A stretch of DNA of 22,252 nucleotides. Origin: a virus. Its lineage: Duplodnaviria; Heunggongvirae; Uroviricota; Caudoviricetes. The notes under the pieces are model-generated. The model was not told the DNA's origin. It did no database searches and saw only the letters and a list, made by a program, of their open reading frames with translations. Location: the IMG/VR virus record IMGVR_UViG_2693429719_000008, positions 1 through 22,252 of that record, one strand, 5' to 3'. Each line of letters begins with the position of its first letter. Within the stretch, counting starts at the first letter, position 1. Made by a program: the position numbers and the translations under genes. Shown one piece after another: positions 1 through 16,604 of this stretch.

Positions 1-1569
1 CTCTTTCGCGGTATCCGTACCGATTTCGGTAAGGTAAACCCCGTTTTTGTTTCGCTTACGTGGCATGCTGGCCACCGGCTTTCCGTAGACGGATGCCCCT
101 TTAATGGGGATCACCCGGAACAGCCCATGTTTTTTCGAGCGTTCATACACAATGGTCGGGTCAATCCCGCCAGTATCCCAGCAGATACGGGATACCGACA
201 TTTCTGCACCATTCCGGCGGATATAGGTTTTATTGATGGCCTCATCCACACGCAGCAGCGTCTGTTCATCATCGTGGCGGCCCATAATAATCTGCCGGTC
301 AATTAGCCAGCTTTCCTCACCCGGCCCCCATCCCCATACGCGCATTTCGTAGCGATCCAGCTGGGAGTCGATACCGGCAGTCAGGTAAGCCACACGGTCA
401 GGAACGGGCGCTGAATAATGCTCTTTCCGCTCTGCCATCACTTCAGCATCCGGACGTTCACCGATTTTCGCTTCCCATGTCTCACCGAGCGTGGTGTTCA
501 CGAAGGTTTTACGTTTTCCCGTATCCCCTTTCGTTTTCATCCAGTCTTTGACAATCTGCACCCAGGTGGTGAACGGGCTGTACGCCGTCCAGATGTGAAA
601 GGTCACGCTGTCCGGCGGCTCAATCTCTTCACCGGATGACGAAAACCAGAGAATGCCATCACGGGTCCAGATCCCGGTCTTTTCGCAGATATAACGGGCA
701 TCAGTGAAGTCCAGCTCCTGCTGGCGGATGACGCAGGCATTATGTTCGCAGAGATAAAACACGCTGGAGGGATCATCCGGCGTCCATTTGAGGCCAAACG
801 GCGTCTCTTTATCGCCAAATTTAAGGTACTGCTCCTCCCCGCAGTGCGGGCAGGCAACATGAAAACGCATAAAATGCGGGGATTCACTGGCTGCACGCTC
901 AATCTGACAGGTGCCTCTCACTTTGGGCGTGGAGCCACGGATGGACTTTGGCCAGACCGAGCCTTCAATACGCTTGTCACCCAGGAACGTCGGAGAGCCT
1001 TCCTGTTCAATATCATCATCAAAGGCAGCAAGTTCATCATAACCCGCCACATCCACTGACTTTTCACGGTAGTTTTTTGCCGCTTTACCGCCCAGGCACC
1101 AGAAGCCACGACCATTGGTGAAACGCTTCATGGTGAGCGTGTTATCCCGGTGCTTTTTGCCATACCACGGGGCCAGCGCCAGCAGCGACGGAATATCACG
1201 GATGGTCGGCTCGACGTGGGTTTTCATAAAGTTCTCGGCATCACCATCCGTCGGCAACCAGATAAGGGTGTTGCGCTGCTTATGCTCTATGAAGTAGGCA
1301 TAAACACCCAACAGCATTTTGGAATAACCGACACGGGCAGACTTCACCACATTTACCTCGCGGATGTAGTCGCTGCCCATCGCATTCATGATGGCCCGCT
1401 GAAAGGGCAGTGTTTCCCAGCGCCCTTCCTGGTATGCGGATTCTTTCGGGAGATAGTAATTAGCATCCGCCCATTCAACGGCGGTCTGTGGCTCCGGCCT
1501 GAACAGTGAGCGAAGCCCGGCGCGGACAAAATGCCGCAGCCTGTTAACCTGACTGTTCGATATATTCAC
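1..1569 (-). CDS. A: Terminase large subunit gpA, N-terminal ~523 codons; gene runs off the window start
   Basis: RC of 1567-1569 is GTG followed by NISNSQVNRLRHFVRAGLRSLF; RC of 1-60 translates in the same frame to RKRNKNGVYLTEIGTDTAKE; both match lambda A as I recall it. Not in the ORF track because no stop falls inside the window. Confidence 0.9.
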   Translation of the reverse strand, partial: MNISNSQVNRLRHFVRAGLRSLFRPEPQTAVEWADANYYLPKESAYQEGRWETLPFQRAIMNAMGSDYIREVNVVKSARVGYSKMLLGVYAYFIEHKQRNTLIWLPTDGDAENFMKTHVEPTIRDIPSLLALAPWYGKKHRDNTLTMKRFTNGRGFWCLGGKAAKNYREKSVDVAGYDELAAFDDDIEQEGSPTFLGDKRIEGSVWPKSIRGSTPKVRGTCQIERAASESPHFMRFHVACPHCGEEQYLKFGDKETPFGLKWTPDDPSSVFYLCEHNACVIRQQELDFTDARYICEKTGIWTRDGILWFSSSGEEIEPPDSVTFHIWTAYSPFTTWVQIVKDWMKTKGDTGKRKTFVNTTLGETWEAKIGERPDAEVMAERKEHYSAPVPDRVAYLTAGIDSQLDRYEMRVWGWGPGEESWLIDRQIIMGRHDDEQTLLRVDEAINKTYIRRNGAEMSVSRICWDTGGIDPTIVYERSKKHGLFRVIPIKGASVYGKPVASMPRKRNKNGVYLTEIGTDTAKE

Positions 1570-2089
1570 TCAGCAACCCCGGTATCAGTTCATCCAGCGC
1601 GGCTGCTTTGTTCATGGCTTTGATGATATCCCGTTTCAGGAAATCAACATGTCGGTTTTCCAGTTCCGGAAAACGCCGCTGCACCGACAGGGGGATCCCG
1701 TCGAGAATACTGGCAATTTCACCTGCGATCCGCGACAGCACGAAAGTACAGAATGCGGTTTCCACCACTTCAGCGGAGTCTCTGGCATTTTTCAGCTCCT
1801 GTGCGTCGGCCTGCGCACGCGTAAGTCGATGGCGTTCGTACTCAATAGTCCCTGGCTGGAGATCTGTCTCGCTGGCCTGCCGCAGTTCTTCAACTTCCCG
1901 GCGCAGCTTTTCGTTCTCAATTTCAGCATCCCTTTCGGCATACCATTTTATGGCGGCGGCAGAGTCATAAAGCACCTCATTACCCTTCCCACCACCTCGC
2001 AGAACGGGCATTCCCTGCTCCTGCCAGTTCTGAATGGTACGGATACTCGCACCGAAAATGTCAGCCAGCTGCTTTTTGTTGACTTCCAT
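1544..2089 (-). CDS. nu1: Terminase small subunit Nu1
   Basis: 181 aa MEVNKKQLADIFGASIRTIQNWQEQGMPVLRGGGKGNEV... is near-identical to lambda Nu1 as I recall it; stop overlaps the A start as in lambda. Confidence 0.95.
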   Translation of the reverse strand: MEVNKKQLADIFGASIRTIQNWQEQGMPVLRGGGKGNEVLYDSAAAIKWYAERDAEIENEKLRREVEELRQASETDLQPGTIEYERHRLTRAQADAQELKNARDSAEVVETAFCTFVLSRIAGEIASILDGIPLSVQRRFPELENRHVDFLKRDIIKAMNKAAALDELIPGLLSEYIEQSG

Positions 2090-2300
2090 TGTTCATTCCA
2101 CGGACAAAAACAGAGAAAGGAAACGACAGAGGCTAAAAAGCCCGTTTTCAGCACCTGTCGTTTCCTTTCTTTTCAGGGGGGGTTTTAAATAAAAACATTA
2201 GGTTACGGCGAAGAAGAACGGAAACGCCTTAAACCGGAAAATTTTCATAAATAGCGAAAACCCGCGCGCCTTCCGCCCCGTAACGTTCTGGATCGCCGGA
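2090..2300. other. cos region (cosB, cosN, cosQ side); cohesive-end 12-mer equivalent at 2267-2278
   Basis: RC of 2161-2266 matches the first ~110 nt of the lambda left end (CGCGGGTTTTCGCTATTTATGAAAATTTTCCGG...); the cosN flank CGTTACG is present at 2279-2285. Confidence 0.75.
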
Positions 2301-2456
2301 AAGGACCCGAAAATGATAATACATATCAATTACACTTAAAGGGGGGGGTTAATTTGTTCACATCAACACTCCGGACCCCAATGGCCTTCTACTCTGGTTT
2401 TGCCATAAAATAGTCCTGATACATATTCATATCAGTTAGTCATATACGGAAAAAAT

Positions 2457-2783
2457 ATGGGCATTACTATTTTCAGCAGTGAAATACAGGATGTTGATAG
2501 CGAAGCGATGTACAAGAGTTGGCTAGCAACCCATTCCGATGGATTCGTTATTAATCTGCTTAAGTCGGCCAGCGGGAAAGGCAGAAAAAATGATGCCAGA
2601 TTTACGCGGATTCATCGAGCCTCATGCAAATCAATCAACCCGTTAATCAGCCCAAAAAATCACGCCGGCTTTACTACTGGCCGATACCAAAAAGTATGTG
2701 TTCTTACGCTTGACGAGGCCGAGTCCACCGCAGGCCAACTAACAGGACTGCCAACCATCCAGAGATGTCATTGGTGTATATAA
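2457..2783 (+). CDS. Hypothetical protein, cargo gene next to cos, transcribed opposite to the terminase genes
   Basis: 108-aa ORF preceded by an AT-rich region and followed by a hairpin terminator; no family recognised. Confidence 0.35.
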   Translation: MGITIFSSEIQDVDSEAMYKSWLATHSDGFVINLLKSASGKGRKNDARFTRIHRASCKSINPLISPKNHAGFTTGRYQKVCVLTLDEAESTAGQLTGLPTIQRCHWCI

Positions 2784-2827
2784 GATACTGCAGTTACGAT
2801 GGGCCTGCCCATGATGACGGAATAATA

Positions 2828-2846
2828 AACCGCCAAAAAGGCGGTT
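2828..2846. terminator. Bidirectional rho-independent terminator-like hairpin between convergent ORFs
   Basis: AACCGCC-AAAAA-GGCGGTT stem-loop flanked by A/T-rich runs on both strands, directly after the stops of the 2457..2783 (+) and 2848..3135 (-) ORFs. Confidence 0.5.
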
Positions 2847-2847
2847 A

Positions 2848-3135
2848 TTAAATTTGACCTCTTGACTTTTCTATTTCATAAAGACCCACTCCATCTCCTG
2901 CATCAAGCAATGCATAATATTCAGGGTCTTTAATTCGATCTATCTGATTTGAAATTTCAAGTAACTCATCCTTTAAAGAATCTACTTCAGAGGCTAATCT
3001 TTCATTTTCATCCCTCAGCTCCCTAACTTCTTGCTGTAAAGACAGTAAGCTCTTCCCGGTTGCTGGAAATCGGTTTATCTCATGCCAGATTGCAACTATT
3101 AAAGCTAATACCGCAACGGTTAAAGATGTCATCAT
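2848..3135 (-). CDS. Small membrane-anchored coiled-coil protein, function unknown
   Basis: 95 aa with an N-terminal hydrophobic segment (SLTVAVLALIVAIW) followed by heptad-like charged sequence (LQQEVRELRDENERLASEVDSLKDELLEI); GGGAGA-type RBS before ATGATG. Confidence 0.5.
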   Translation of the reverse strand: MMTSLTVAVLALIVAIWHEINRFPATGKSLLSLQQEVRELRDENERLASEVDSLKDELLEISNQIDRIKDPEYYALLDAGDGVGLYEIEKSRGQI

Positions 3136-3163
3136 TGGTCTCCCTTTACTTTACAGGATATAG

Positions 3164-3200
3164 CACCATCACAGACACTCTACGAGATCCTGTGATGGTG
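3164..3200. repeat. Perfect 11-bp inverted repeat (CACCATCACAG / CTGTGATGGTG) with 15-nt spacer in the 5' region of the 2848..3135 gene
   Basis: Read directly from the sequence. Confidence 0.6.
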
Positions 3201-3242
3201 AGATTAGAATGGAGGCTGTCTATGGTGATGCACCTGTGGATG

Positions 3243-3782
3243 TTATGATTTTTCGATCATTTTTATTACATTTTTGGCTGGCTTAATTTTCATCGTATCG
3301 CCGGTAGCAAGGTGCACAAGCAACATTAATTTGCGAACGTTGCCGCCCTGTTCCCATATCTTATTTTTCATATCTCTGGCCCAGTCGCCATTAGTATCAT
3401 TTTGAATAAAGAAAAATGCATATTCGCCATGCTCAATTTTTTTTGGTAAATCGTCACCAAACCCACCCCCCAGAATCTGAAGTAGTGAGTTTTTTGTACC
3501 GAACGTCCATGTTACTGAAGTTATAGTTGCGGTTTGAATGCCAACATTTGCAATGTTGATCGTAACTCCAAACGTGCTCACATTTTGGCCTGTGATGCCC
3601 CCAAGCGATACTGTTCCTCTTAACTTCGGTCGAGGTCGACGGTTAGAAATATATAAAGTCAGGCATACTGCCATAAAGGTTGCAATGCCTGAAAACCACG
3701 TTCCTACCATTGACCAAAAAGCCCATTCTGCTGTATTTCTAGTGGCAACCAATGATTCGTAAGCTATATAATCTGCGTTCAT
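3243..3782 (-). CDS. Single-pass membrane protein, function unknown; start uncertain (ATG at 3782 with GAGGTG RBS, or ATG at 3824)
   Basis: AT-rich coding region; the track ORF extends to 3986 through GC-rich DNA that is probably not coding. N-terminal hydrophobic segment AEWAFWSMVGTWFSGIATFMAVCLTLYI followed by a ~130-aa soluble part. Confidence 0.45.
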   Translation of the reverse strand: MNADYIAYESLVATRNTAEWAFWSMVGTWFSGIATFMAVCLTLYISNRRPRPKLRGTVSLGGITGQNVSTFGVTINIANVGIQTATITSVTWTFGTKNSLLQILGGGFGDDLPKKIEHGEYAFFFIQNDTNGDWARDMKNKIWEQGGNVRKLMLLVHLATGDTMKIKPAKNVIKMIEKS

Positions 3783-4100
3783 CTTCACCTCATTTATCGA
3801 TGAAGTGATTGTAACTAAAAGCATTATCGCAAGCACTAAGTGAATGCCAACCACACTCTCGCAGTAGCTGCGCTCATTCCCTTGAGGCCATGTGTCAGGG
3901 GTATCTCGTGAATCCCTCACCACTAACCGGAAGCTGACTGGCGACCAGCCTGGAGTACCGGTGCGCTTCTTCCCGTTACCCCTCACCAGTACGCCCTCAG
4001 CTTTTTACCTGAGACTGGCTACCCGCAACTTTGGGTATTCGGGGCAGCATCATGACTGCTGCATTGGCGCCACTTGCCACGGTCCGTCCGCTTTACTGCT

Positions 4101-4358
4101 TCATAGCTTGATCCTCTCTGCTTCAATTTTTCGAATATCAGCTTTATCTCGGTTACAGGTCGCCAGCGCGGAAAGCAGACTGACATTCAAATCCAGACTG
4201 CCCCCATAGGTCAGCGGATCAGGAATAACTGGTTGTGGGGTCTCAGTGGTCAGATTCGCCGGTAGCGGTACCGCTGGAACTGGTACGTAAACTGTCCGCG
4301 TACCGGCGCAGCCGTTCAGCTGCACGAGCAGGAACAGGACGGGCAGCGCAATCATCAT
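4101..4358 (-). CDS. o-spanin (Rz1-like outer-membrane lipoprotein), overlapping the 3' end of the i-spanin gene in another frame
   Basis: Internal start MMIALPVLFLLVQLNGC gives a lipoprotein-type signal with Cys, followed by a proline-rich mature part (VPVPAVPLPANLTTETPQPVIPDP). Confidence 0.6.
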   Translation of the reverse strand: MMIALPVLFLLVQLNGCAGTRTVYVPVPAVPLPANLTTETPQPVIPDPLTYGGSLDLNVSLLSALATCNRDKADIRKIEAERIKL

Positions 4359-4635
4359 TCGCAACAGCCGTTTTGATATCTGTCTGGGTTCTCTGTGACT
4401 CCAGTGCAATCTGCTGTTTTGCATGCTGGCTAGCCTCCAGAACTGTATTGACGATTTGCAGTGATTGCAGGACGTTATTGGTAATGACAGTTGTCGATTT
4501 GGCATTTTGTACAGCCTCATCAGCACGTTTCTTTTCGTGCTGATATTTGCTGTAGTAGTGGTTGGCAGACCAGATGAAAGAACCGATGACAGTAACGAGA
4601 AAAGCAGCGATAACCAGCTTATAGCTCAACTTCAT
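4243..4635 (-). CDS. i-spanin (Rz-like)
   Basis: 130 aa with N-terminal TM (LVIAAFLVTVIGSFIW) then coiled-coil-like sequence; sits directly after the endolysin with an embedded/overlapping lipoprotein ORF. Confidence 0.7.
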   Translation of the reverse strand: MKLSYKLVIAAFLVTVIGSFIWSANHYYSKYQHEKKRADEAVQNAKSTTVITNNVLQSLQIVNTVLEASQHAKQQIALESQRTQTDIKTAVANDDCAARPVPARAAERLRRYADSLRTSSSGTATGESDH

Positions 4636-5095
4636 TTACCACCCCACCAGCCTCTTTAAATCGGGAAATCAGGTCACCGATTTTATGTTCATACTGACCG
4701 TAACCTGCTCCGGGTAACGAAGCCCAGATATTGCTGCAACAGTCGATTGCCTGACGGATGTCACCGCGATCAATCATTAGTAAAGCACCACGCTCCTTAA
4801 TCTGCTGCAATGCAACAGCATCCTGGCTTTTAGGAGAGAAGTCTGTCAGCCCTAACTGCTTGCGGTAAGCATCCCACCAGCGTGAAAGAAGTTGATAACG
4901 GCCTGCGGCTGTTGATTTGAGTTTCGGGTTTAGCGTGACAAGTTTTCGAGGGTGATCGGAGTAATCAGTGAAGAGTTCGCCACCGACAATAACGTCATAA
5001 CCGCGGTTACGTGTCGGTTGTCGCCCGTTATCCGTTCCTTCTGACCACGCCAACATATCGAGGAAAGCTTTACGCTGAGGATTAAGATTTTGCAT
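4619..5095 (-). CDS. R: Endolysin, lambda R-type lytic transglycosylase
   Basis: 158 aa ...NPQRKAFLDMLAWSEGTDNGRQ...YDVIVGGELFTDYSDHPRKLVTLNPKLKST...GRYQLLSRWWDAYRKQLGL... closely matches lambda R as I recall it. Confidence 0.9.
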   Translation of the reverse strand: MQNLNPQRKAFLDMLAWSEGTDNGRQPTRNRGYDVIVGGELFTDYSDHPRKLVTLNPKLKSTAAGRYQLLSRWWDAYRKQLGLTDFSPKSQDAVALQQIKERGALLMIDRGDIRQAIDCCSNIWASLPGAGYGQYEHKIGDLISRFKEAGGVVNEVEL

Positions 5096-5399
5096 TTTTC
5101 ACCCCTGTCAGTCGTTCCCAGAAGTACGTCAGTGCAACCGAGCCCATCGCACCACTAATCCCCGCTGTCGCGAGAATCATGTAAATACTGAATCCACTTT
5201 CGATACTGATCAGGCCACCAATAACACCGGTGAATCCCGATACCACTATCTGAGCCAGAGCATTTATCCAGCTCCACGTTGCTTTACTTTGCTTCACATC
5301 TATCAGATAGCGGACCAAACCGCCCCAACCTGCGATGATCAGCAAAACGAGCCAGAACGCTCCGGCAAGGCTCTCTTTTTCGTGCATATGAATAGCCAA
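5082..5399 (-). CDS. Holin (three predicted TM segments, dual-Met N-terminus MAIHM)
   Basis: 105 aa with three hydrophobic stretches, immediately upstream of and overlapping the endolysin gene; not lambda S by sequence. Confidence 0.7.
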   Translation of the reverse strand: MAIHMHEKESLAGAFWLVLLIIAGWGGLVRYLIDVKQSKATWSWINALAQIVVSGFTGVIGGLISIESGFSIYMILATAGISGAMGSVALTYFWERLTGVKNAKS

Positions 5400-5615
5400 T
5401 GTTTCGCCGCCGACGAAAGGCCGGGACGCTAATGATTAAAAACTTACATGGGAAATATTGTTATAAACAGTCAACTCAAAATAACTAAAAAATCTTATAA
5501 CTAAGCGAATGGCCTTCAAAAGCCGATCCATGCAACTTGCATAAAACGATCTTTATCAATGAGTTACATGTGTGGTTAAATACCATGCTTTAAGGACTAA
5601 GAGCATTACCAGCAG

Positions 5616-6419
5616 ATGACAGAAAAAGATAACATTGGTAAGTTAATTTGGCATATTGCTTGCGATGAATCTGGCATTGATGGGCAACGTTTCTACGGCT
5701 TTGGCAGTCTGTGGATGAAGTACCAACGCCGTGGGGATTTCTGTCAACTAATCAGAGAACTACGCAGCAAACATGGTTTTTTTGAAGAAATAAAATGGCA
5801 AAAAGCCCATTCAAAAAGATACTCTGAATTTTATCTTGAGCTGATCGACTTATTCTTTAGAGTTCCTTGGCTAGCTTTTCATTGTATCGTGGTTGAAAAA
5901 TCAATAGTAAACAAGACATTTCATAATGGGGATTATGACCTGGCAAGGAGAAAGCACTTCACAAATCTCATTACCACAAAAATTAGCTCTGTAATTTCTG
6001 CACACCCTGAAAGAGACAGTTACTTCAGGATTGAAGTTGATCCTATCGCATCTCGTTATAAAAAGGCCGATGAAGAACTAAATGTTATTGCCAATAACAT
6101 ATTGAATAGAAAATTTGGTCGTAAAGGGATAATCAGCAGTGTAGTGACAAAAGACTCTAAAGCATCTGAAAACATTCAGCTAGCCGATTTTTTCTTAGGT
6201 GCGGTTATGTGCGCATATCAAGGAAAAGCTTCATCTGAAGCCAAAATAAGAGTATCAAACTATGTTGCTTCATATTTAGGCTGGGATCATTTGCAATATG
6301 ATACATGGCACACTGAGAGAAAATTTAATATCTGGTATTTTTATGATAAAACTCGAGGGTCACGAGATATAGAAACTCAAAATGTTAGCTTAAAGTATCC
6401 ACTTCCCCAAAAGAAATAG
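5616..6419 (+). CDS. DUF3800-like protein, cargo gene of unknown function
   Basis: 267 aa with N-terminal HIACDESGIDG and C-terminal NIQLADFFLG motifs that I associate with DUF3800; lies in an AT-rich island with its own upstream AT-rich region. Confidence 0.6.
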   Translation: MTEKDNIGKLIWHIACDESGIDGQRFYGFGSLWMKYQRRGDFCQLIRELRSKHGFFEEIKWQKAHSKRYSEFYLELIDLFFRVPWLAFHCIVVEKSIVNKTFHNGDYDLARRKHFTNLITTKISSVISAHPERDSYFRIEVDPIASRYKKADEELNVIANNILNRKFGRKGIISSVVTKDSKASENIQLADFFLGAVMCAYQGKASSEAKIRVSNYVASYLGWDHLQYDTWHTERKFNIWYFYDKTRGSRDIETQNVSLKYPLPQKK

Positions 6420-6538
6420 ACGTCGACCTCTCAGCCGACACGGTTGGAGTCCCAGACCAATTATCGAGTCGAAGTTACCAACTTGGCGGTTATCTTTTGG
6501 GAGCCGCCCCTTCATTCCCAAAACCTTTATTGCAGAAA

Positions 6539-6567
6539 AATCTATATCCTGGAAATTGGATAGTCAA
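6539..6567 (-). promoter_or_regulatory. Candidate late promoter (pR'-like)
   Basis: On the minus strand TTGACT, 17-nt spacer, TAGATT, about 75 nt downstream of the Q-like stop. Confidence 0.35.
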
Positions 6568-6640
6568 CCCTTACGACACCTACGAACAGTTGCACATACA
6601 ACATTGGCAAAATATCAGATTTACACGGAATATATGCCTT

Positions 6641-7330
6641 TCAATCCAGTTTTGCAATACTTTGCTGTGAAAATGTCGTCTTTTGTTTTGAACGTGTTCT
6701 CGTTACAAGCAATAAAGCTTCGCTATCAAGCTGTAGAAAAATGTGCTTCATTGCAACCCAGCGTTCAGTAAATGTCTCAGACCAGTTTTTTGATGTCACT
6801 CCCACCAGTGATGCCAGCTCCTGGTATTCATAGGTCTTACGCCCTGCCAGCTCGTTCTTCACATCCTGTGCCGCCAGCCAGATCAACTTCTTCAAACGTT
6901 CCAGTGTCTTACCTGCAATTTTTCTGGTACCCAACAGAGTCTTAAACTCGCTCCATGCCCACTGCGTTATGGTGACCTGATGTTCCCAGCGAACACTTTC
7001 GCTGTAACTCCACAGCAACCACGCTTTCTGATGTTCTTCGAGAGACAGAACCGCGCGGCGCCATGACGAGGTTGAGAACTCAACCTGGCTTACCAGTGCA
7101 ATGGATGAACCTTTTGCGTACGACTGCTTACCGGAAATCGGCGGATTATCCAGCGTAATCATCCTGCCAGTTACCTCATCCAGAATGCGCAGCTTCTTTC
7201 GTTTGTATGTACCAGTATCAAATTGTGCATGCTCCAGCCAGGCTTCAAGCTGTCCTTTCGTTGCTCCGCTCAAATCAGCGGTAGCCACAATGAGTTGCTC
7301 GCGGACATACTGTAAATATTGGGTATTCAT
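6641..7330 (-). CDS. Putative late-gene antiterminator, Q-position protein (long cysteine-free type)
   Basis: 229-aa ORF in the Q slot between ylcG/rusA and the lysis genes; start overlaps the ylcG-like stop; contains no Cys, so it is not a lambda/82/21 zinc-finger Q. Assignment is mainly positional. Confidence 0.4.
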   Translation of the reverse strand: MNTQYLQYVREQLIVATADLSGATKGQLEAWLEHAQFDTGTYKRKKLRILDEVTGRMITLDNPPISGKQSYAKGSSIALVSQVEFSTSSWRRAVLSLEEHQKAWLLWSYSESVRWEHQVTITQWAWSEFKTLLGTRKIAGKTLERLKKLIWLAAQDVKNELAGRKTYEYQELASLVGVTSKNWSETFTERWVAMKHIFLQLDSEALLLVTRTRSKQKTTFSQQSIAKLD

Positions 7331-7467
7331 GCGGCAGCTCCTTTCAGTGTTTTGGCGTAATTCTTCAGTATCCGGTAATCGGTCAAAACAGAACCAGGAA
7401 AACGATATAAGCGCAGGCGCACCCAGCGGCGGCGAAGACGCTCTGCCATATAAGACTCAAACATCAT
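7327..7467 (-). CDS. ylcG: YlcG-like small protein (46 aa)
   Basis: Hand-translated [46 protein letters not shown]; ATG overlaps the rusA stop and its stop overlaps the Q-like ATG; matches the DLP12 rusA-ylcG-Q order. Below the ORF-track size cutoff. Confidence 0.45.
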
Positions 7468-7826
7468 TCATTCCCCAGTTCAGTGATGGTCAGTTCCAGC
7501 TTCCCACCTTTGGTAACAGGCATCTTCACAACGCGGTAATCAACGACCAGCTCATCATCCAGCCAGAAACCTGCTTTAGTGAGTGCGTCAAAAGCGGCTT
7601 TTTGCAGATTATCCAGGTCACGGCGACGGCGATCCGGCATGTGGCACTCAATGCGGATTTTCACAGGCATAGCCAGACCGATATCCAGCATTGAGCCTTT
7701 AATGATTCGGGCGACGTTATCACGGTATGCCTGCCCTTCTGCGCTGATGTGCGTGCGCCCGCGATTATGCCTGTAGTAGCGGTTATTGCTCGGCGGCCAG
7801 GGTAGTGTGATGTGGTAAGTATTCAC
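7464..7826 (-). CDS. rusA: RusA Holliday-junction resolvase
   Basis: From GTG at 7826: [41 protein letters not shown]...[35 protein letters not shown]... matches RusA as I recall it; AGGGGG RBS upstream. Confidence 0.85.
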
Positions 7827-8113
7827 GCCTTGATTACCCCCTCTTTCAGCCAGATAACCTGCGTTCTCGCCATACCTTCCAGCGCGCATTCTTTTGCGTA
7901 CTCAGCATCGACAAAATGCGTGCGGCGGTCGATTTCGTCGTGACAGGCAGAACAGGCAATGGTGGCAATAAGGTCTGGCGGTTTAATACCGGTGCCGCAC
8001 AATCCAGCCAGCCGGATATGTGCCAGTACAGACGTTTCAGGGTTGCCATTACATACGCCAGGGATTCTTACCTGGCATTCCCGACCACGCGCTGCTTTTC
8101 TCAAATCAGCCAT
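7823..8113 (-). CDS. ybcO: YbcO-like protein (Cys-rich, DLP12-type nin gene)
   Basis: From internal ATG: [64 protein letters not shown]..., recognised as YbcO. Confidence 0.75.
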
Positions 8114-8276
8114 GATTCCTCCTTGCTGCCAGTCGCAACCATTTTTTATCAACCAGGCTGGCGGTATATCCGAGCAGTGTTGGTATTTCGGATGGCTTCA
8201 GCTCAGGTTTACGCTTACGACGATTTGGTACTCTGTAGATGTGTCCGTTCATGACACGAATAAGCGGTGTAGCCAT
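8106..8276 (-). CDS. ninE: NinE family protein
   Basis: From internal ATG: [56 protein letters not shown]; start overlaps the ybcN stop. Confidence 0.75.
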   Translation of the reverse strand: MATPLIRVMNGHIYRVPNRRKRKPELKPSEIPTLLGYTASLVDKKWLRLAARRNHG

Positions 8277-8731
8277 TACGCCTCCTGCTTGTCGCGCAGC
8301 AGCTGGAACTCGCAGCTCTGCGGAATAGTCAGGTGGCAACCAATATTCATCGCCCAGGCTTCAACCTTACACAGGAAGACATACATCTCTCCGGTATCGA
8401 GATCGGAGGTATGACGTAATGACTGAATGGTGGTGATTTCACCGGTTACGACATCAACCAGGTCTTTGGTTTCAAAACCGAGATAAGTGTGTTTGAGAGC
8501 ATCTTTTACCCAAGCTGCAGTAGCGAACGATTTCCCCCTGCTTATGAGGTATTCACTGATTTCGCTGTACCACATGTGGCTAAGTGCATTCTGGGAAAGA
8601 CTGCGTCTCTCGCGCCACGGTTTAAGCACCATGCGAAAGCATTTTCCGTCCTCCAGATAAGGCTGGATCTGCTGACCGATAGCGGTGAAGTTACCGCGAT
8701 GTAATTTGATGCCGTCTTGTGGGAGGTTCAC
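8276..8731 (-). CDS. ybcN: YbcN-like protein (NinB position)
   Basis: 151 aa ...[61 protein letters not shown]..., recognised as DLP12 YbcN; GTG start. Confidence 0.75.
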
Positions 8732-8764
8732 GCTTCACCTCCGCAGAGGTCAAACGTTGGATGC

Positions 8765-8890
8765 AAAAAATCGCAGGTGCATTTCTGCATCTGTGAAGGG
8801 AGAAGAGAGTTTGGATTGTGTGTGCGCATAAACGTCCCCGTTTAGCGCAGAAGTCACCGGAGTTGTTCAGGTTCCGGTGATACAATTATG
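8765..8890 (+). repeat. 126-bp direct repeat, copy A (partner at 10949..11074, about 92% identical)
   Basis: Hand alignment at offset 2184 gives 116/126 matches; contains a 10-bp-stem hairpin (8853-8881) and a second imperfect hairpin. Confidence 0.85.
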
Positions 8891-8941
8891 GCGAATTGAT
8901 GACGGAGAATCAATTTTGCGAAAATGACACGATTGATCTAC

Positions 8942-9574
8942 TCAGGCCTTGGAAAGCTTGAGCTTACCCTTTACGTGCAGAGTGTTAATTAACCAGAAGG
9001 CCCCGAGCAAACACATACAATGCGCGCTAGTGACTAACTTACAAATACGAATGCGATTTTCTTCAAGATCAGGAGGTAGCTCTTTCATCAACGCTATAGC
9101 GTAGATTCCATCCTTGAGAATTGGCTCAACAACTTGATGCACGTAGCCACCATGGTTAATCTCTTCTAACTTTATGTTTTTAATCGATTCTGCGAGTTTA
9201 TCAACCTCTTCATTTGTAATTACATATTCAATTTTATGAGCGTACTTGTTACGTATTGTGTTGAGCTCAGCCATAGCGTCTGCAAGCGAGACAGGAAGCC
9301 CTAACAGAACTGCGGCAGACAGCTTTGACGCAAAATACTTATAGCTTCTTATCGAATTGTATTTTTCAGAGCCATCAGGTCGTAAGTTTTCAATAACAAC
9401 CCGAAGAAAGTCCTCATGAATTAGCATCAATTTTAATAGCGCGGCAGACTCATCCTCATAGTTAGCTATCGAGGCCATTTTATTAAGATCTAGAAAATAG
9501 CCAAAGTCATGATCGATTTTCACGTAGTTACCCTCATCCGTTGTTGGACTTTGTTCAATTCGAGAGAATTTCAT
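8942..9574 (-). CDS. Hypothetical protein with a possible HEPN-type Rx4H motif; candidate effector of the nin cargo cassette
   Basis: 210 aa, AT-rich; contains NTIRNKYAHK (R-x4-H); predicted mostly helical; start ATG overlaps the stop of an upstream 58-aa ORF. Confidence 0.5.
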   Translation of the reverse strand: MKFSRIEQSPTTDEGNYVKIDHDFGYFLDLNKMASIANYEDESAALLKLMLIHEDFLRVVIENLRPDGSEKYNSIRSYKYFASKLSAAVLLGLPVSLADAMAELNTIRNKYAHKIEYVITNEEVDKLAESIKNIKLEEINHGGYVHQVVEPILKDGIYAIALMKELPPDLEENRIRICKLVTSAHCMCLLGAFWLINTLHVKGKLKLSKA

Positions 9575-9747
9575 TTATCTTCCTCCTGTTTCATATATCT
9601 AGGGTCAGATGCTTTAGGCTGGGTGATGCTATGCTCAATGGAGAAGCCGGACGCGCTCCATGTTGATTTGCCAGTTTGAGCTATCGTGACAACACATTCA
9701 TTATTGTCGATGTTAACTTCGCGCAGCACTGGTAACTGTGAATTCAT
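9571..9747 (-). CDS. Small protein (58 aa) translationally coupled to the downstream 210-aa gene
   Basis: Hand-translated MNSQLPVLREVNIDNNECVVTIAQTGKSTWSASGFSIEHSITQPKASDPRYMKQEEDK; GGAG RBS 8 nt upstream; stop TGA overlaps the next ATG. Below the ORF-track size cutoff. Confidence 0.4.
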   Translation of the reverse strand: MNSQLPVLREVNIDNNECVVTIAQTGKSTWSASGFSIEHSITQPKASDPRYMKQEEDK

Positions 9748-9817
9748 TTTCTAACTCCTGTTTAATGTTGACACCGCATTTATGCTGTCACGACACAATT
9801 ACTTTCTATCCTGCTGT

Positions 9818-9838
9818 GATGCTGCTGACAGCGGCATC
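9818..9838. promoter_or_regulatory. Imperfect 21-bp palindrome (GATGCTGCTGACAGCGGCATC) upstream of the small-ORF/210-aa operon; candidate operator
   Basis: 18/21 positions are self-complementary; located in the 160-bp gap between the Bro-N gene and the small ORF. Confidence 0.35.
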
Positions 9839-9909
9839 CAATACCTTACCTTCTCAGCATTCTGCAAAATCGATGACGAGTCATGACCGGTTCGCGTAGC
9901 TCAGTGAAA

Positions 9910-10521
9910 TTACTGCAACCTTTCCTGACGGAAATATGGTAACACTCGACTCCACTTATCATCCTGCCAAGGCTGGAATTTTACATGTGCCGTTTCTCTG
10001 GCGAGGATTGCTCGCGCTCTGTTGAGTATCTGGGGATATTCTTGCTCGATAGAAGTAAAGCGACCGGCTTCGCGGTGCTCCGCGACCTGAAGAAGTGGAG
10101 TAACGTTCTGGCAGGCAGTTAACATCACATCACTTGCTCGCCATAACCAAGCAAGTGTGCAAAGTTCGTTATCAGTGAATTGTTTTGTGATTGGGGATTG
10201 TTGAATTTCTCGATCGAGAAGATCCAGCACCCAGCGGCGGAATTCTTTGGCCACAGGAGTACGAGCAAACATGGCGATCAGATGGGCGCCTCGCAGGGAG
10301 AAAATGCGTATTGTTTTCTGGTAGTTCCCTGAGACACTCAAATTGAGGGTCTCAGTCATATCTGCCCTAAATTCATCGGAATTTCGATCGTAGATCTGAG
10401 TAACGGCATCAGATTTTTTATATCCGAGAGCTTGAGCAATCTCAACGGCAGTAAGCCAGATATTGTTGTTGTGGTTAATAGGATGGAATTTTGTTTGATG
10501 AAAGACTAGTTGTGTGCTCAT
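9910..10521 (-). CDS. Bro-N / antirepressor-like protein
   Basis: 203 aa; the N-terminal region (...NIWLTAVEIAQALGYKKSDAVTQIY...IFSLRGAHLIAMFARTPVAKEFRRWVLDLLD) resembles Bro-N/AntA-type phage regulatory domains. Confidence 0.55.
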   Translation of the reverse strand: MSTQLVFHQTKFHPINHNNNIWLTAVEIAQALGYKKSDAVTQIYDRNSDEFRADMTETLNLSVSGNYQKTIRIFSLRGAHLIAMFARTPVAKEFRRWVLDLLDREIQQSPITKQFTDNELCTLAWLWRASDVMLTACQNVTPLLQVAEHREAGRFTSIEQEYPQILNRARAILARETAHVKFQPWQDDKWSRVLPYFRQERLQ

Positions 10522-10676
10522 GGTGATTACCTATAAATCAAGTTAACCACCACCGCTGACGCCAATCAGTTTGGTGGTGAGACATGTAGGGTTGGCGTAA
10601 CCGGGGTAATCAACCGGCCCGACCGAAGTCGGCCCTACACGCCCCACCATAATTCAGATGTGCGTATGCTTACGAC

Positions 10677-10701
10677 AATAAAAAACACGCTCGCGGCGTG
10701 T
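10677..10701 (-). terminator. Rho-independent terminator for minus-strand (lambda-rightward) transcription
   Basis: Minus-strand ACACGC-CGCGA-GCGTGT hairpin followed by TTTTTATT. Confidence 0.6.
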
Positions 10702-10791
10702 AGTAGTCGCGATTACCTTATCCGGGACGCCAATCCCGTGTGCCGATTTTGCGGCAACGCGTAAGAATATATCCCCAGATAAATCATATCG

Positions 10792-10881
10792 TCAACCCCA
10801 GTAAATGGACACCATGATGATCACAGCCATAGCTGCTACAACTGTTGCAACTACTTTATGCCAAGACATCACGATTTCCAT
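10792..10881 (-). CDS. Small hydrophobic peptide (29 aa), possible membrane toxin-like ORF
   Basis: Hand-translated MEIVMSWHKVVATVVAAMAVIIMVSIYWG; AAGG RBS-like sequence upstream. Below the ORF-track size cutoff. Confidence 0.3.
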   Translation of the reverse strand: MEIVMSWHKVVATVVAAMAVIIMVSIYWG

Positions 10882-10948
10882 ATCGCCTTTAGCCGCCAGA
10901 CGAACAGAGATTCCCAGCTTTATACTGCCGAGGCCAAACACCGAATAT

Positions 10949-11074
10949 AAAAAACCGCAGGTGCATTTCTACATCTGTGAAGGGAGAAGATAATTTGGAT
11001 TGTATGTGCGCATAAACGTCCCCGTTTAGCGCAGAAGTCATCGGAGTTGTTCAGGCTCCGATGACATGATTATG
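10949..11074 (+). repeat. 126-bp direct repeat, copy B (partner at 8765..8890)
   Basis: See copy A; the hairpin in copy B (11037-11065) is a perfect 10-bp stem. Confidence 0.85.
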
Positions 11075-11101: not shown

Positions 11102-11359
11102 TTAATTTTTAGTTGTGTCTTCTTGAAAAGAAGTTCTCACTCTTAAAATATGATATCCAATAGAATTGATATCGCTTTTAGCTCTTACGTCATTGATACC
11201 TATCATCCCAGGTTCTAACAACTCACTTTTTTTGATAATTGAAAATTTCGAGAAGTCAGGATCACTCACCCCGAGGGCATTTCCTGTAACCACTGTATTC
11301 GCTGGGACAACAAGATACTTAGAATTACAAATATCACTTTTATAAATATCTACATACAT
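11102..11359 (-). CDS. Hypothetical protein in an AT-rich moron immediately downstream of P
   Basis: 85-aa ORF in a strongly AT-rich block (about 11075-11615) with a long AT-rich upstream region; no family recognised. Confidence 0.4.
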   Translation of the reverse strand: MYVDIYKSDICNSKYLVVPANTVVTGNALGVSDPDFSKFSIIKKSELLEPGMIGINDVRAKSDINSIGYHILRVRTSFQEDTTKN

Positions 11360-11615: not shown

Positions 11616-12317
11616 TCATGCTCTGTCTCCTTTCAGCCCAAACTTAGCTTTGATTTCTGCGATCTTCGCCAGAGCCTGTGCACGATTTAGAGGTCTACCG
11701 CCCATGACAGGAAGTTGTTTTACTGGTTCAGGTATAGCCTCACCACGGTTAATTCGTGCGGTCATACAGGACAGTTCATCGGCAGCCTTGCGCCGTAATT
11801 CCGCGTCAGTCAACGCATTGGCCCGCATGTTCTGATACAGGTTGGTAACCAGCCAGTAGTGCGCGTTTGATTTCCACGGATAAGACTCTGCATCCGGATA
11901 CAGCCCGCGCTTCCGGCAATACTCGTAAACCATATCAACCAGCTCGCTGGCGTTTGGCAGCCCGGCGGTAACGGATGCTTCTTCCCGGCACCAGGCGACA
12001 AACTGCCCGGGTGATGGCAGGAATGGTCGATTCTGCCGACGGGCTACGCGCATTCCAGCGTTAACCTGTTCCATTGTGGTGATCCCGTTTTCCCGGAAAG
12101 CCAGCACCCACTGGCGGCGGATTTCGTTCAGTTCATTCTGGTCACGGTTAGCCAGGCTCGCCGGGAAAGTTGCCAGTAACTGGCTGAACACACCGTTGAT
12201 GATCTGCGCTACCTGCTGTACCTGAGGCTTTTCGTCGTACTGTTCCGGCATGTTGTTGGCGATCCGACGCATCTGCTCACGGTCAAAGTTAACCATCTGT
12301 GCGGCGATGTTTTTCAT
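11616..12317 (-). CDS. P: Replication protein P (DnaB helicase loader)
   Basis: 233 aa MKNIAAQMVNFDREQMRRIANNMPEQYDEKPQVQQVAQIINGVFSQLLATFPASLANRDQNE... is near-identical to lambda P as I recall it. Confidence 0.95.
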   Translation of the reverse strand: MKNIAAQMVNFDREQMRRIANNMPEQYDEKPQVQQVAQIINGVFSQLLATFPASLANRDQNELNEIRRQWVLAFRENGITTMEQVNAGMRVARRQNRPFLPSPGQFVAWCREEASVTAGLPNASELVDMVYEYCRKRGLYPDAESYPWKSNAHYWLVTNLYQNMRANALTDAELRRKAADELSCMTARINRGEAIPEPVKQLPVMGGRPLNRAQALAKIAEIKAKFGLKGDRA

Positions 12318-14127: not shown

Positions 14128-14237
14128 TATCAATTCCTATTGGTATTACAATGAATGGATAATAGCAATGCGTATTAACCATGGCAATAGCAAAACGTGT
14201 TTTGACCATCAATACGCAAGCGTATAAATTAAAACTT
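14128..14237. promoter_or_regulatory. OR region: three 16-bp operator sites at 25-bp spacing with divergent pR and pRM
   Basis: Sites AATAGCAATGCGTATT (14161-14176), AATAGCAAAACGTGTT (14186-14201), AATACGCAAGCGTATA (14211-14226). pR on the minus strand: -35 TTGCCA (14182-14187), 17-nt spacer, -10 TATTAT (14159-14164). pRM -10 TATAAA at 14223-14228 places the start close to the cI ATG. Confidence 0.6.
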
Positions 14238-14930
14238 ATGAAAAAAGAAACTCTTGCTGATCGCTTAAACCTAGCGATGGAACAATCTGGGATGTCTCAA
14301 GGCGCTCTTGCAAAGGCGTCTGGCGTAGCTCAACCCACAATCTGGAGACTGACAAGCGGCAACGCGCGCGGCTCAACAAAAATTGTTGAAATAGCTAATG
14401 CATTGGGTGTTCGAACAGAGTGGCTCTCATCAGGCATAGGCCCGATGAGAAATGACGGTCAACAATCAGGGAAGCCTACTGTCAACCATTCCAAATACTT
14501 CAAGATTGACGTTCTTGATATAGAAGTGAGTGCCGGGCCGGGAGTCATCAACCGTGAGTTTGTAGAAGTCCTACGCTCGGTTGAGTACTCGTTTGACGAT
14601 GCTCGTCACATGTTCGATGGCAGGAAGGCGGAAAATATCCGCATCATTAACGTACGTGGTGACAGCATGTCAGGAACAATCGAACCAGGTGATCTGCTGT
14701 TCGTTGATATCACGGTTAAATCTTTCGACGGTGATGGCATCTATGCGTTTCTGTACGACGACACAGCCCATGTAAAGCGCCTGCAAATGATGAAGGATAA
14801 GCTGTTGGTTATCTCTGATAACAAGAGCTACTCACCGTGGGACCCGATCGAGAAAGACGAGATGAACCGGGTGTTCATTTTTGGGAAAGTCATCGGGAGC
14901 ATGCCGCAGACCTACAGGAAGCATGGGTAG
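14238..14930 (+). CDS. cI: CI-type prophage repressor (N-terminal HTH, C-terminal S24 LexA-like autopeptidase)
   Basis: MKKETLADRLNLAMEQSGMSQGALAKASGVAQPTIWRL... HTH, then VRGDSMSGTIEPGDLLFVD and AHVKRL (Ser/Lys dyad context). The track ORF starts at 14181, but that would place operators inside the coding sequence. Confidence 0.85.
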   Translation: MKKETLADRLNLAMEQSGMSQGALAKASGVAQPTIWRLTSGNARGSTKIVEIANALGVRTEWLSSGIGPMRNDGQQSGKPTVNHSKYFKIDVLDIEVSAGPGVINREFVEVLRSVEYSFDDARHMFDGRKAENIRIINVRGDSMSGTIEPGDLLFVDITVKSFDGDGIYAFLYDDTAHVKRLQMMKDKLLVISDNKSYSPWDPIEKDEMNRVFIFGKVIGSMPQTYRKHG

Positions 14931-15053: not shown

Positions 15054-16076
15054 ATGAAAGATAACAGACAAAAAGTCGTTCATTATAAAAAAGCAGTAAT
15101 CCCACACAGCAAATCATCATTACAAAACATACTACTTAGTATTATAGGTGAGGGCGGCGTTGCAGAAAAAGTACTTAGTAGACAAGAAAAAATAACACCT
15201 TCAGATGAAAATTCGGGGTATCGTTTCTTAAATAAAAGCGACACATACAAAACTATACTTTTTGGGCAACTGGTTTTATTTGAAAAAGACAAAAGCCAGT
15301 CTCTATTAGAGCTTAGTGATAATGTTAAATTTTATGACATTAACTCCATCACGTCTAATGATATAATTATTGATGGAGATAAACGTAGTGACAAAAAAAG
15401 AGAGTTTGTAGATTCAATTTTATATTTTGGTGTACTAAACAACCATGTCATGATCGTTCAATCCACATCGCTTCGAGCAAGGGAGCTTGAGGCGCATTTG
15501 AATTGGCTAATTAATACATTCACAGATGAAAAAGAATCTGTGTTAATGCTTCAAGATAAGCCATCCGAAGAAACGATGAAAAAAATGGAGAAAGCACCAG
15601 CCAAGAGCATAAAAATTGGTGGATTACCCATTACTTCAGAAGTTAAAAATTCAGAGAACCAAACACCCTCCTTTTCAAATGGTTCGGTGAAGACAATAAA
15701 ATACCGCCCAATAGGGAAAGGAGGTGCGCTACTAAAAGCATTTTTTGGCGATAACTGGGCAAATGATATAAACATTAAAGATTCATTAGATGAGGCCAAT
15801 TTACAAGTAAGCCTCGAGATTACATACTTCAGAAAAACAAATGATAGCGGTCAAGCTGTTATAGACAGTATTGCTACCTCACTACGACATCTAGATGAGG
15901 ATGATATTAGCATCAAACTTCAAGGCGGTGGGGAAATAACGGGAAAAGAGATAAAATTATCCGGAAAAATTAGCGTTGAACATAACAATGGCATTATTGA
16001 TGAAAATGATTTATTCTTAAAAATGCATAAGTGGCTGTTCTCAAAACTTGATGCCGGAGAATTGGTTGCAAAATAA
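15054..16076 (+). CDS. Hypothetical soluble protein in the rexA position, candidate phage-exclusion component
   Basis: 340 aa, AT-rich, directly downstream of cI on the same strand; no Walker or nuclease motif recognised. Confidence 0.5.
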   Translation: MKDNRQKVVHYKKAVIPHSKSSLQNILLSIIGEGGVAEKVLSRQEKITPSDENSGYRFLNKSDTYKTILFGQLVLFEKDKSQSLLELSDNVKFYDINSITSNDIIIDGDKRSDKKREFVDSILYFGVLNNHVMIVQSTSLRARELEAHLNWLINTFTDEKESVLMLQDKPSEETMKKMEKAPAKSIKIGGLPITSEVKNSENQTPSFSNGSVKTIKYRPIGKGGALLKAFFGDNWANDINIKDSLDEANLQVSLEITYFRKTNDSGQAVIDSIATSLRHLDEDDISIKLQGGGEITGKEIKLSGKISVEHNNGIIDENDLFLKMHKWLFSKLDAGELVAK

Positions 16077-16097: not shown

Positions 16098-16604
16098 ATG
16101 AAATCGAACATCATCCACCTTATTGGTATGTTGGTCTTCTATTTTGCTGGTTACTTTTTGTTCAAGTTAGCATTGGGCTATATTACACCGGGTGTTGTCC
16201 TAACAGCTCCGTGGGCTGTGGTTGGACTCATGCAATTGCCATTATCATATTGTATACAAGCCATTTTTAAGGCAAATGAGGCCAATGACCACTCGTCTTT
16301 AACCCCTAGTGAGGTTAGGCGATTAGTGCCAATAGTCAAATCCAAGAGACTGAAATTGGTTTTATTATTAGCTTTCTATGTATTTTCAACTTTGTTTGTA
16401 ATCTTGGGGTTAATAGCAAGCACAAATGATCAAGCCCTACTCTTCAGGGTCTTAAAAATTTCAGGTGGATTACTCTTTATTTCTCTCTATACCAGTGTAT
16501 TCGTTCATAAAATAATGGTTGAGCTTCAAGAGTTTAAAGCGTTATTAAACCGAAGAGAATCAGAGAAGAAGGAAAGAGAGTCACTCCTGGATAGATTAAA
16601 ATGA
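16098..16604 (+). CDS. Four-TM membrane protein in the rexB position, candidate phage-exclusion component
   Basis: 168 aa with four hydrophobic segments and a charged C-terminal tail (NRRESEKKERESLLDRLK); GGAGG RBS; starts 22 nt after the preceding gene. Confidence 0.5.
   Translation: MKSNIIHLIGMLVFYFAGYFLFKLALGYITPGVVLTAPWAVVGLMQLPLSYCIQAIFKANEANDHSSLTPSEVRRLVPIVKSKRLKLVLLLAFYVFSTLFVILGLIASTNDQALLFRVLKISGGLLFISLYTSVFVHKIMVELQEFKALLNRRESEKKERESLLDRLK

Follow-up and report, generated by a model that had tools for sequence, protein, structure and literature searches.

What does a prophage carry when a small open reading frame (ORF) overlaps the start of a gene with a HEPN-type ribonuclease motif? 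The question is raised by a stretch of 22,252 nucleotides (nt) from a tailed-phage record (IMG/VR IMGVR_UViG_2693429719_000008; hereafter the window, to which coordinates refer unless another genome is named). In the block between the genes P and ybcN, an ORF of 58 amino acids (aa) overlaps a gene for a 210-aa protein carrying an R-x4-H motif, and a gene for a Bro-N protein lies nearby. The original prediction had read these genes as one repeat-flanked cassette, in which the small ORF could be the partner of an abortive-infection or toxin-antitoxin effector. We consider, with a probability of roughly 0.8 for the explanation as a whole, that the block combines two accessory modules already known from prophages, a HepS-type defence gene and an RNA-controlled antirepressor gene, in a mosaic that occupies a cargo slot prone to recombination in a lambdoid Escherichia coli prophage.

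HepS ("HEPN Solo", STM14_3211) is encoded by the Salmonella Typhimurium prophage Gifsy-1, and its family was published in January 2026 together with crystal structures (Sargen et al., Nature 2026; PMC13043305; PDB 9oij and 9oik). It is a single-protein abortive-infection system against siphoviruses, an anticodon nuclease that acts alone, is inactive by default and is not toxic when overexpressed. The trigger is the nascent J tail-tip protein, in the region around F924 of lambda J, which forms a composite beta-sheet with the N- and C-termini of HepS; the activated enzyme then cuts anticodon loops, that of tRNA-Thr(GGT) first. Residues R100 and H105 are essential for function, Y20 and I107 relay the allosteric change, and the tetramer requires F66, K78, and L83. 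Gifsy prophages avoid self-targeting through the replacement of phenylalanine by isoleucine at the trigger position of J. Homologues with 35-50% identity are found across the Enterobacteriaceae, with no conserved partner gene (PMC13043305).

When 5.8 billion proteins were searched with the 210-aa protein, only 16 clusters were retrieved, all of them enterobacterial. The profile of these clusters, compared with all PDB sequences, matched HepS over its full length (9oij_A, E = 2.8e-107; the HepS-H105A variant 9oik_A, E = 8.8e-106), and BLASTP against Salmonella HepS gave 105 identical residues out of 208 (50%; E = 6e-73). A match to phrog_5712, a family of unknown function, was also obtained (7e-65). 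The motif occupies residues 107-114 (IRNKYAHK), with R108 and H113 as the ends of RNKYAH. An exhaustive profile search found 111 relatives. R108, N109, and H113 were invariant in nine close homologues and also in 75 diverse homologues with identities down to about 20%; E54 was the only other invariant column of the 75-sequence alignment.

The AlphaFold2 (AF2) model of the 210-aa protein was taken from this 75-sequence alignment (predicted local distance difference test, pLDDT, 89; predicted template modelling score, pTM, 0.86), the one made with the nine close sequences being unusable (pLDDT 41). Foldseek comparison of the model with the PDB returned the HepS chains of 9oij and 9oik as the sole matches with E ≤ 0.001 (TM score 0.84-0.95; root-mean-square deviation 1.2-1.3 Å). 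Judged from sequence and modelled fold, the 210-aa protein is securely a member of the HepS family. Like the stand-alone proteins described in PMC13043305, it is shorter than 250 aa, has a single domain (no further Pfam domain was found, and NCBIfam returned nothing meaningful) and lacks a conserved partner gene. The original prediction, drawn from the motif, that an accessory slot of the prophage holds a defence effector of the HEPN RNase type is thus upheld by the full-length homology, the fold and the invariance of the motif, and the profile and structure searches that it had proposed as a check placed the protein on HepS, with a HEPN fold. Its statement that the protein belonged to no described family has been overtaken by the publication of HepS.

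At the level of single residues, the catalytic R100, N101, and H105 of HepS correspond to R108, N109, and H113 of the 210-aa protein. Residues Y20 (here Y26), I107 (I115), K71 (K79), L83 (L91), and D15 (D21) are also kept, so that both proposed anticodon contacts, K71 and N101, are present. In the set involved in the tetramer and in allostery, F66 is conservatively replaced by Y72, in addition to the three residues retained (Y26, I115, L91), and K78 is not kept.

Several results weigh against a close functional equivalence with HepS, or against the assignment itself. K78, which HepS cannot do without at its tetramer interface, is S86 here. Of the four residues through which HepS makes hydrogen bonds to the J trigger, three have changed (S13 to K19, S202 to K209, and T203 to A210), and D15 alone is kept, as D21; moreover, the N-terminal strand contains a six-residue insertion and the C-terminal tail is seven residues shorter than in HepS. 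Given the divergence at the trigger contacts and at K78, the trigger, and even the dependence of activation on a tetramer, may differ from those of HepS. Pfam gave only sub-threshold HEPN matches, both centred on the motif (DUF4145, E = 0.011; HEPN_Swt1, E = 0.05). No match was found by PADLOC v2.0.0, a null result that is uninformative because genuine HepS is absent from that 2023 library too and gives a chance-level match of 0.005 only. Finally, no consensus promoter lies directly upstream, and constitutive expression of the gene in the lysogen is therefore an assumption. As far as the alignments tell, the divergence at J-contact residues bears on the identity of the trigger and not on family membership.

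This divergence is the basis of the alternative that survives best, to which we give a fairly low probability, well below that of the explanation as a whole. It holds that the E. coli/Enterobacter clade has kept the catalytic and allosteric core while its sensor now recognizes another J variant (possibly that of F924-substituted escapers) or another late protein, and that the enzyme may cut other tRNAs. The trigger-contact residues and both terminal strands are indeed the most diverged parts of the protein, and residues 10-16 form the most variable stretch within its clade. On the other side, the residues that link binding of the trigger to the active site (D15, Y20, and I107) are conserved, the two terminal strands are still paired in the AF2 model, and the proposed anticodon contacts K71 and N101 are retained.

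The J protein of the prophage itself bears on the same alternative. The resident J gene lies outside the window, and its nearest proxy, which is a lead only, was taken from E. coli SCU-301 (locus L017), whose prophage next to icd is 99.8% identical over window positions 1-8700. The SCU-301 J (L017, 13345-16827) shares 85% identity with lambda J, and its residue at the trigger position is phenylalanine (GDQIFMNEVF), as at lambda 924; several tail genes of this prophage are annotated as frameshifted. If the resident J matched this proxy, it would self-trigger a canonical HepS, which would favour an altered sensor. However, the proxy genome has no hepS and lambdoid phages are mosaic, so that the proxy says little about the resident J. 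Were the altered-sensor alternative true, HepS-type sensors would be diversifying in an arms race with tail-tip proteins, and the prophage might tolerate a phenylalanine-type J of its own.

The hepS-like gene is embedded in a block whose genes all lie on the minus strand, with transcription running from high to low coordinates. Listed from P (11616-12317) downward to ybcN (8276-8731), the features are as follows:

11102-11359, minus strand: 85-aa ORF (ORF call).
10927-11074, minus strand: direct repeat copy B, ylcH boundary element (repeat alignment).
10792-10941, minus strand: 49-aa ORF, phrog_4612 (function unknown), between repeat copy B and isrK (PHROG, 2.5e-23).
10766-10795, minus strand: promoter-like site for the isrK transcript (consensus match alone).
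10680-10756, minus strand: isrK-type small RNA with its own terminator at 10685-10701 (Rfam RF01394).
10570-10654, minus strand: C4 antisense RNA (Rfam RF01695).
10543-10650, minus strand: 35-codon ORF overlapping C4 (translation).
9910-10521, minus strand: ant, 203-aa antirepressor with Bro-N and P22AR C-terminal domains (Pfam, PHROG).
9748-9909, minus strand: non-coding spacer of 162 nt from ant to the 58-aa ORF (alignments).
9571-9747, minus strand: 58-aa chimeric ORF (DNA and protein alignments).
9571-9662, minus strand: remnant of a theta-homologue gene, 3' end (98% identity to a theta pseudogene, frameshifted, in E. coli 09A19CPO009).
8942-9574, minus strand: hepS-like gene for the 210-aa, HepS-family stand-alone HEPN protein (homology, fold, motif).
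8743-8890, minus strand: direct repeat copy A, same element as copy B (repeat alignment).

The block between the repeats (8891-10926) measures 2036 nt. It had been called AT-rich, which holds for the hepS-like gene (40.3% GC); for the block as a whole, the GC content of 44.5% is only modestly below that of the window (46.4%), and the genes on either side (ybcN-rusA and O-P) have about 51%.

The 58-aa and 210-aa ORFs share 4 nt (ATGA), an overlap that had been reported correctly, as had the IRNKYAHK motif. The small ORF gave no match in Pfam, PADLOC, or NCBIfam, and the 5.8e9 proteins contained only one matching cluster, 98% identical, and no wider family. Its two halves have separate origins. 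Residues 1-30 have their homologue in the N-terminal 30 residues of a 64-aa ORF, unannotated, that lies ahead of another cargo gene in other E. coli. The family of this ORF comprises six clusters, with full-length copies in a few clusters; in E. coli SF-468 (locus L013), the ORF lies at 3501-3700 (MKSQSPVQHEVNIDGKEYVV...), and its 5' half is the source of the N-terminus of the 58-aa ORF. The other half leads to E. coli 09A19CPO009 (locus L011), which is 98.4% identical to the window over 9662..8700 (L011, 3963..3001) and contains, at this point, a gene annotated "DNA polymerase III subunit theta, frameshifted". This match indicates that residues ~29-58 of the small ORF are derived from theta, partly out of frame. 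In Enterobacter, and in an Enterobacter metagenome-assembled genome, an intact gene for an 82-85-aa DNA polymerase III theta homologue overlaps the start of hepS by the same 4 nt, its product ending in ...SITLPKASDPRYLKQEEGK. Phages are known to encode such theta homologues, Hot of P1 being an example.

Intact phage theta genes (HolE/Hot-like) were observed in the Enterobacter and Klebsiella loci L005-L010 and L019, and the ATGA overlap with hepS is constant in the clade. The Klebsiella aerogenes hepS copies start 17 codons later, 62 nt from theta; because of this later start, they lack the N-terminal sensor strand. Theta was considered as a functional partner of HepS and rejected, as the adjacency is specific to one clade, theta decays while hepS stays intact, and the distant homologues have no theta. 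Upstream of Gifsy-1 hepS and of the more distant homologues, there is neither a theta gene nor a small ORF.

These alignments show the 58-aa ORF to be a recombination scar, a lineage-specific fusion of two gene fragments and not the small partner that the original prediction had seen in it, with an ATGA overlap inherited from the theta-hepS junction. We propose that a theta-homologue gene once overlapped hepS by ATGA, that this gene would first have suffered a frameshift, and that the 5' half of a different small gene would then have taken the place of its 5' part, leaving a 58-aa scar that is presumably dispensable for HepS function.

The origin of the small ORF decides against a toxin-antitoxin or two-component abortive-infection module, in which the 58-aa protein would neutralize or regulate a HEPN toxin and translational coupling would set their ratio. 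Many HEPN toxins do have small partners, for example HepT/MntA; here, the ATGA overlap is real, the small ORF has a good Shine-Dalgarno sequence (CAGGAG), and it is 100% conserved in 16 E. coli genomes. This identity is due to recent common descent and not to selection. Moreover, the ORF consists of fused fragments of two unrelated genes and has no homologues beyond its own cluster, the orthologous hepS genes follow an intact or frameshifted theta gene or nothing at all, and HepS itself is partnerless and non-toxic on its own (PMC13043305). The hepS-like gene also has a strong Shine-Dalgarno sequence of its own (AGGAGG), 8 nt upstream of it and inside the end of the preceding ORF. HEPN toxin-antitoxin pairs carry a conserved cognate antitoxin, such as an MNT nucleotidyltransferase, and the 58-aa ORF is not one. 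A chimeric ORF without a family, absent from the orthologous loci, beside a hepS-like gene with its own Shine-Dalgarno sequence leads us to reject this module with high confidence. Of the two possibilities that had been offered for the HEPN protein, the abortive-infection one therefore stands and the toxin-antitoxin one falls.

The spacer upstream of the small ORF (9748-9909) shares 79% identity with the sequence that precedes another cargo in other E. coli. Promoter, terminator, and Rfam searches of this spacer found no consensus promoter, no terminator, and no isrJ-like RNA; it is possible that the spacer serves as a promoter or leader for the hepS-like gene.

The hepS-like gene was found in 18 of the 5426 complete E. 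coli genomes, in most cases within DLP12-type defective prophages, and its ORF is intact in all 18 (16 with the 58-aa ORF version and 2 with a frameshifted theta gene). A tblastn search of 50,697 sequenced phage genomes revealed no copy, and a scan of species-representative genomes only one close relative. In comparison with the Enterobacter orthologues, the non-synonymous divergence (dN) was 0.11-0.16, with synonymous divergence (dS) saturated, and dN/dS was 0.07 in comparison with the 09A19CPO009 copy; low dN at saturated synonymous sites indicates purifying selection on the gene. That it is a decaying, non-functional passenger of a degenerate prophage, as its rarity, its mostly defective hosts, and the decay of the neighbouring theta gene might suggest, is very improbable in view of the full-length ORF in all carriers, the intact catalytic residues, and the low non-synonymous change.

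If the 210-aa protein works as HepS does, the first module (8942-9574) would produce a stand-alone HEPN RNase that most likely stays inactive in the lysogen, as a tetramer. Allosteric activation would follow when its N- and C-terminal strands are bound by a late protein from an infecting siphovirus, the counterpart of nascent J for Gifsy-1 HepS. R108 and H113 from paired protomers would then catalyse the cleavage of anticodon loops of particular tRNAs, and the infection would be aborted. We infer the tetramer, the trigger, the tRNA targets, the abortive phenotype, and the expression in the lysogen from the homology to HepS.

The Bro-N gene appears, from its sequence relationships and those of its surroundings, to be an antirepressor in a separate and known module controlled by isrK and C4 RNAs, and not a part of the defence cassette in which the original prediction had placed it. 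The identification of its product as a Bro-N, antirepressor-like protein was itself correct: Pfam matches were above cut-offs (PF02498, Bro-N, 2e-13; PF10548, P22AR_C, 2e-16), and PHROG families of anti-repressor Ant were matched down to 2e-53. No solved structure matched Ant by sequence. Two RNA genes lie upstream of ant on the same strand, C4 (RF01695, 74.2 bits for a gathering score of 45) and isrK (RF01394, 61.2 bits for a gathering score of 50); the c4-a1b1 model RF03163 at 10719-10770 scored 36.4 bits, below its threshold of 46.7. The C4 loop UUGAUUACC (10605-10611) is complementary to GGUAAUC at two sites, just before the ant start codon (10525-10531, the a2/b2-type target) and in isrK (10711-10717, the a1/b1-type target); the pairing is read from sequence complementarity alone. 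A promoter-like site, TTGACG-18-TATATT (10766-10795; 10 of 12 consensus positions), is placed for the isrK transcript start, and the terminator-like site at 10685-10701 fits the isrK terminator. The 35-codon ORF that overlaps C4 stops 21 nt before ant and, by position, seems to be the analogue of Gifsy-1 orf45. In close relatives from E. coli, the same ant gene is instead placed under regulators of the Arc/Mnt type. We propose that in this second module (9910-10795), expression of the antirepressor would be gated by the isrK and C4 antisense RNAs, as in immI of P1 and isrK-orf45-anrP of Gifsy-1.

Both modules are bracketed by direct repeats (8743-8890 and 10927-11074), as had been predicted for the region from P to ybcN. 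The two copies measure 148 nt and share 87% identity, the 126 bp noted earlier being their best-conserved core (BLAST segment 11074..10949), and their length and identity are far beyond chance. Each copy contains promoter-like hexamers (TTGATT-17/18-CATAAT), a hairpin in which one change between the copies is compensatory, a 33-codon ylcH ORF, and a terminator-like hairpin with a U-run; the RNA fold of the element has a z-score of -3.7. The ylcH ORF is intact in copy A (8728-8829), where its stop overlaps the start of ybcN, and is interrupted by an in-frame TAG in copy B; an ylcH-type ORF is annotated in relatives. The element looks more like a functional unit than a bare recombination site; conceivable roles are those of a small transcript, a leader, or a tR2-like terminator region. 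The isrK and C4 genes, the ylcH ORF within the repeats, and the chimeric nature of the 58-aa ORF had not been noted in the original prediction.

As the conserved ylcH element, the repeats mark the boundaries of a cargo slot. L011 and E. coli 24A16CRGN010 (locus L012) have both copies too, with different cargo there. The earlier claim that related E. coli prophages carry unrelated genes between P and ybcN is borne out by a 225-aa protein in L012, a 169-aa phrog_1779 protein in L013, and emrE, ybcK, and a hydrolase gene in L017. The L012 protein (3217-3894), in the position of hepS, also has a HEPN-like R-x4-H motif, RLRNNLFH. A remnant of the theta gene (MREQLEHLRDYF...) forms the annotated N-terminus of this protein, which matches phrog_27260, with no PDB or PADLOC match; possibly it is another HEPN defence candidate of this slot, one that has not been described so far. 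The L013 protein (2842-3351 in SF-468) has no assigned function. The 85-aa ORF of the window forms an island of 32% GC between P and repeat B, in the position of ren in relatives, and had no match in Pfam, PHROGs, NCBIfam, or PADLOC.

Other defence-type candidates were observed elsewhere in the window. A 267-aa DUF3800 protein (5616-6419, plus strand) is encoded between Q (6641-7330) and the holin gene, on the strand opposite to the block; it matches the PADLOC candidate defence family PDC-M04A (7.5e-35) and phrog_3732, and is probably a further moron of the defence type. The cI-like repressor gene (14181-14930) is followed immediately downstream by two ORFs on the plus strand, at 15054-16076 (340 aa, phrog_3482) and 16098-16604 (168 aa, phrog_16807). 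They occupy the position of lambda rexAB and gave no Pfam or PADLOC match, which makes them a candidate exclusion pair expressed in the lysogen.

With the 210-aa protein, the HepS defence family extends to a rare E. coli prophage allele. Its conserved catalytic core and diverged sensor surface make this allele a naturally occurring variant with which the reading of tail-tip proteins by HepS could be mapped. A cargo slot is also defined in DLP12/lambda-type prophages, from the theta gene to the ylcH element, with strain-specific candidate defence genes inside it. More generally, overlap with a HEPN gene does not by itself make a small ORF an antitoxin; in this locus, the ORF can be traced stepwise to gene decay and recombination.

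Among known systems, HEPN-MNT (HepT/MntA) and similar pairs share with this locus an Rx4-6H HEPN RNase gene that adjoins and overlaps a small upstream ORF. They differ in that the 58-aa ORF has no nucleotidyltransferase or other domain, is chimeric, and is missing from the orthologous loci, and in that HepS is inactive without an antitoxin. The phage theta homologues (PF06440) are related to the small ORF through its last 19 residues (SITQPKASDPRYMKQEEDK), which match the C-terminus of the 82-aa Enterobacter prophage theta preceding hepS; only this 3' end survives in the 58-aa ORF, part of it out of frame, and no theta domain is detected by Pfam.

The antirepressor module has the order of Gifsy-1 isrK-orf45-anrP (PMC4825925) and of immI in P1/P7 (C4 RNA-icd-ant): an isrK-type small RNA with its terminator, a C4-type RNA, an overlapping short ORF, and an antirepressor gene. 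Also shared with Gifsy-1 and P1 is a C4 loop complementary to the ribosome-binding region of ant and to a site in the upstream RNA. In contrast to the Gifsy-1 locus, where AnrP is of the ORF6N type, the antirepressor here combines Bro-N and P22AR_C, and the module is located in the nin region and not after Q.

With PrrC, RloC, RemAIN, and Tha, as discussed in PMC13043305, the proposed defence gene would share the logic of a latent RNase, activation by a phage component, and shut-down of translation; those systems have extra domains or partner proteins, and no sequence relationship with the 210-aa protein was detected. The closest likeness is to HepS. Upstream of Gifsy-1 hepS is a dATP/dGTP pyrophosphohydrolase gene followed by a gap of 108 nt, whereas here a theta-gene remnant overlaps the start by ATGA. 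The two proteins are both 210 aa long with one HEPN domain, are 50% identical over their whole length, and superpose in fold; the RNxxxH motif, the residues of the allosteric pair (Y20/I107), and those that contact tRNA (K71/N101) are common to them. Both genes are found, with no conserved partner, in a lambdoid prophage accessory region downstream of the replication genes.

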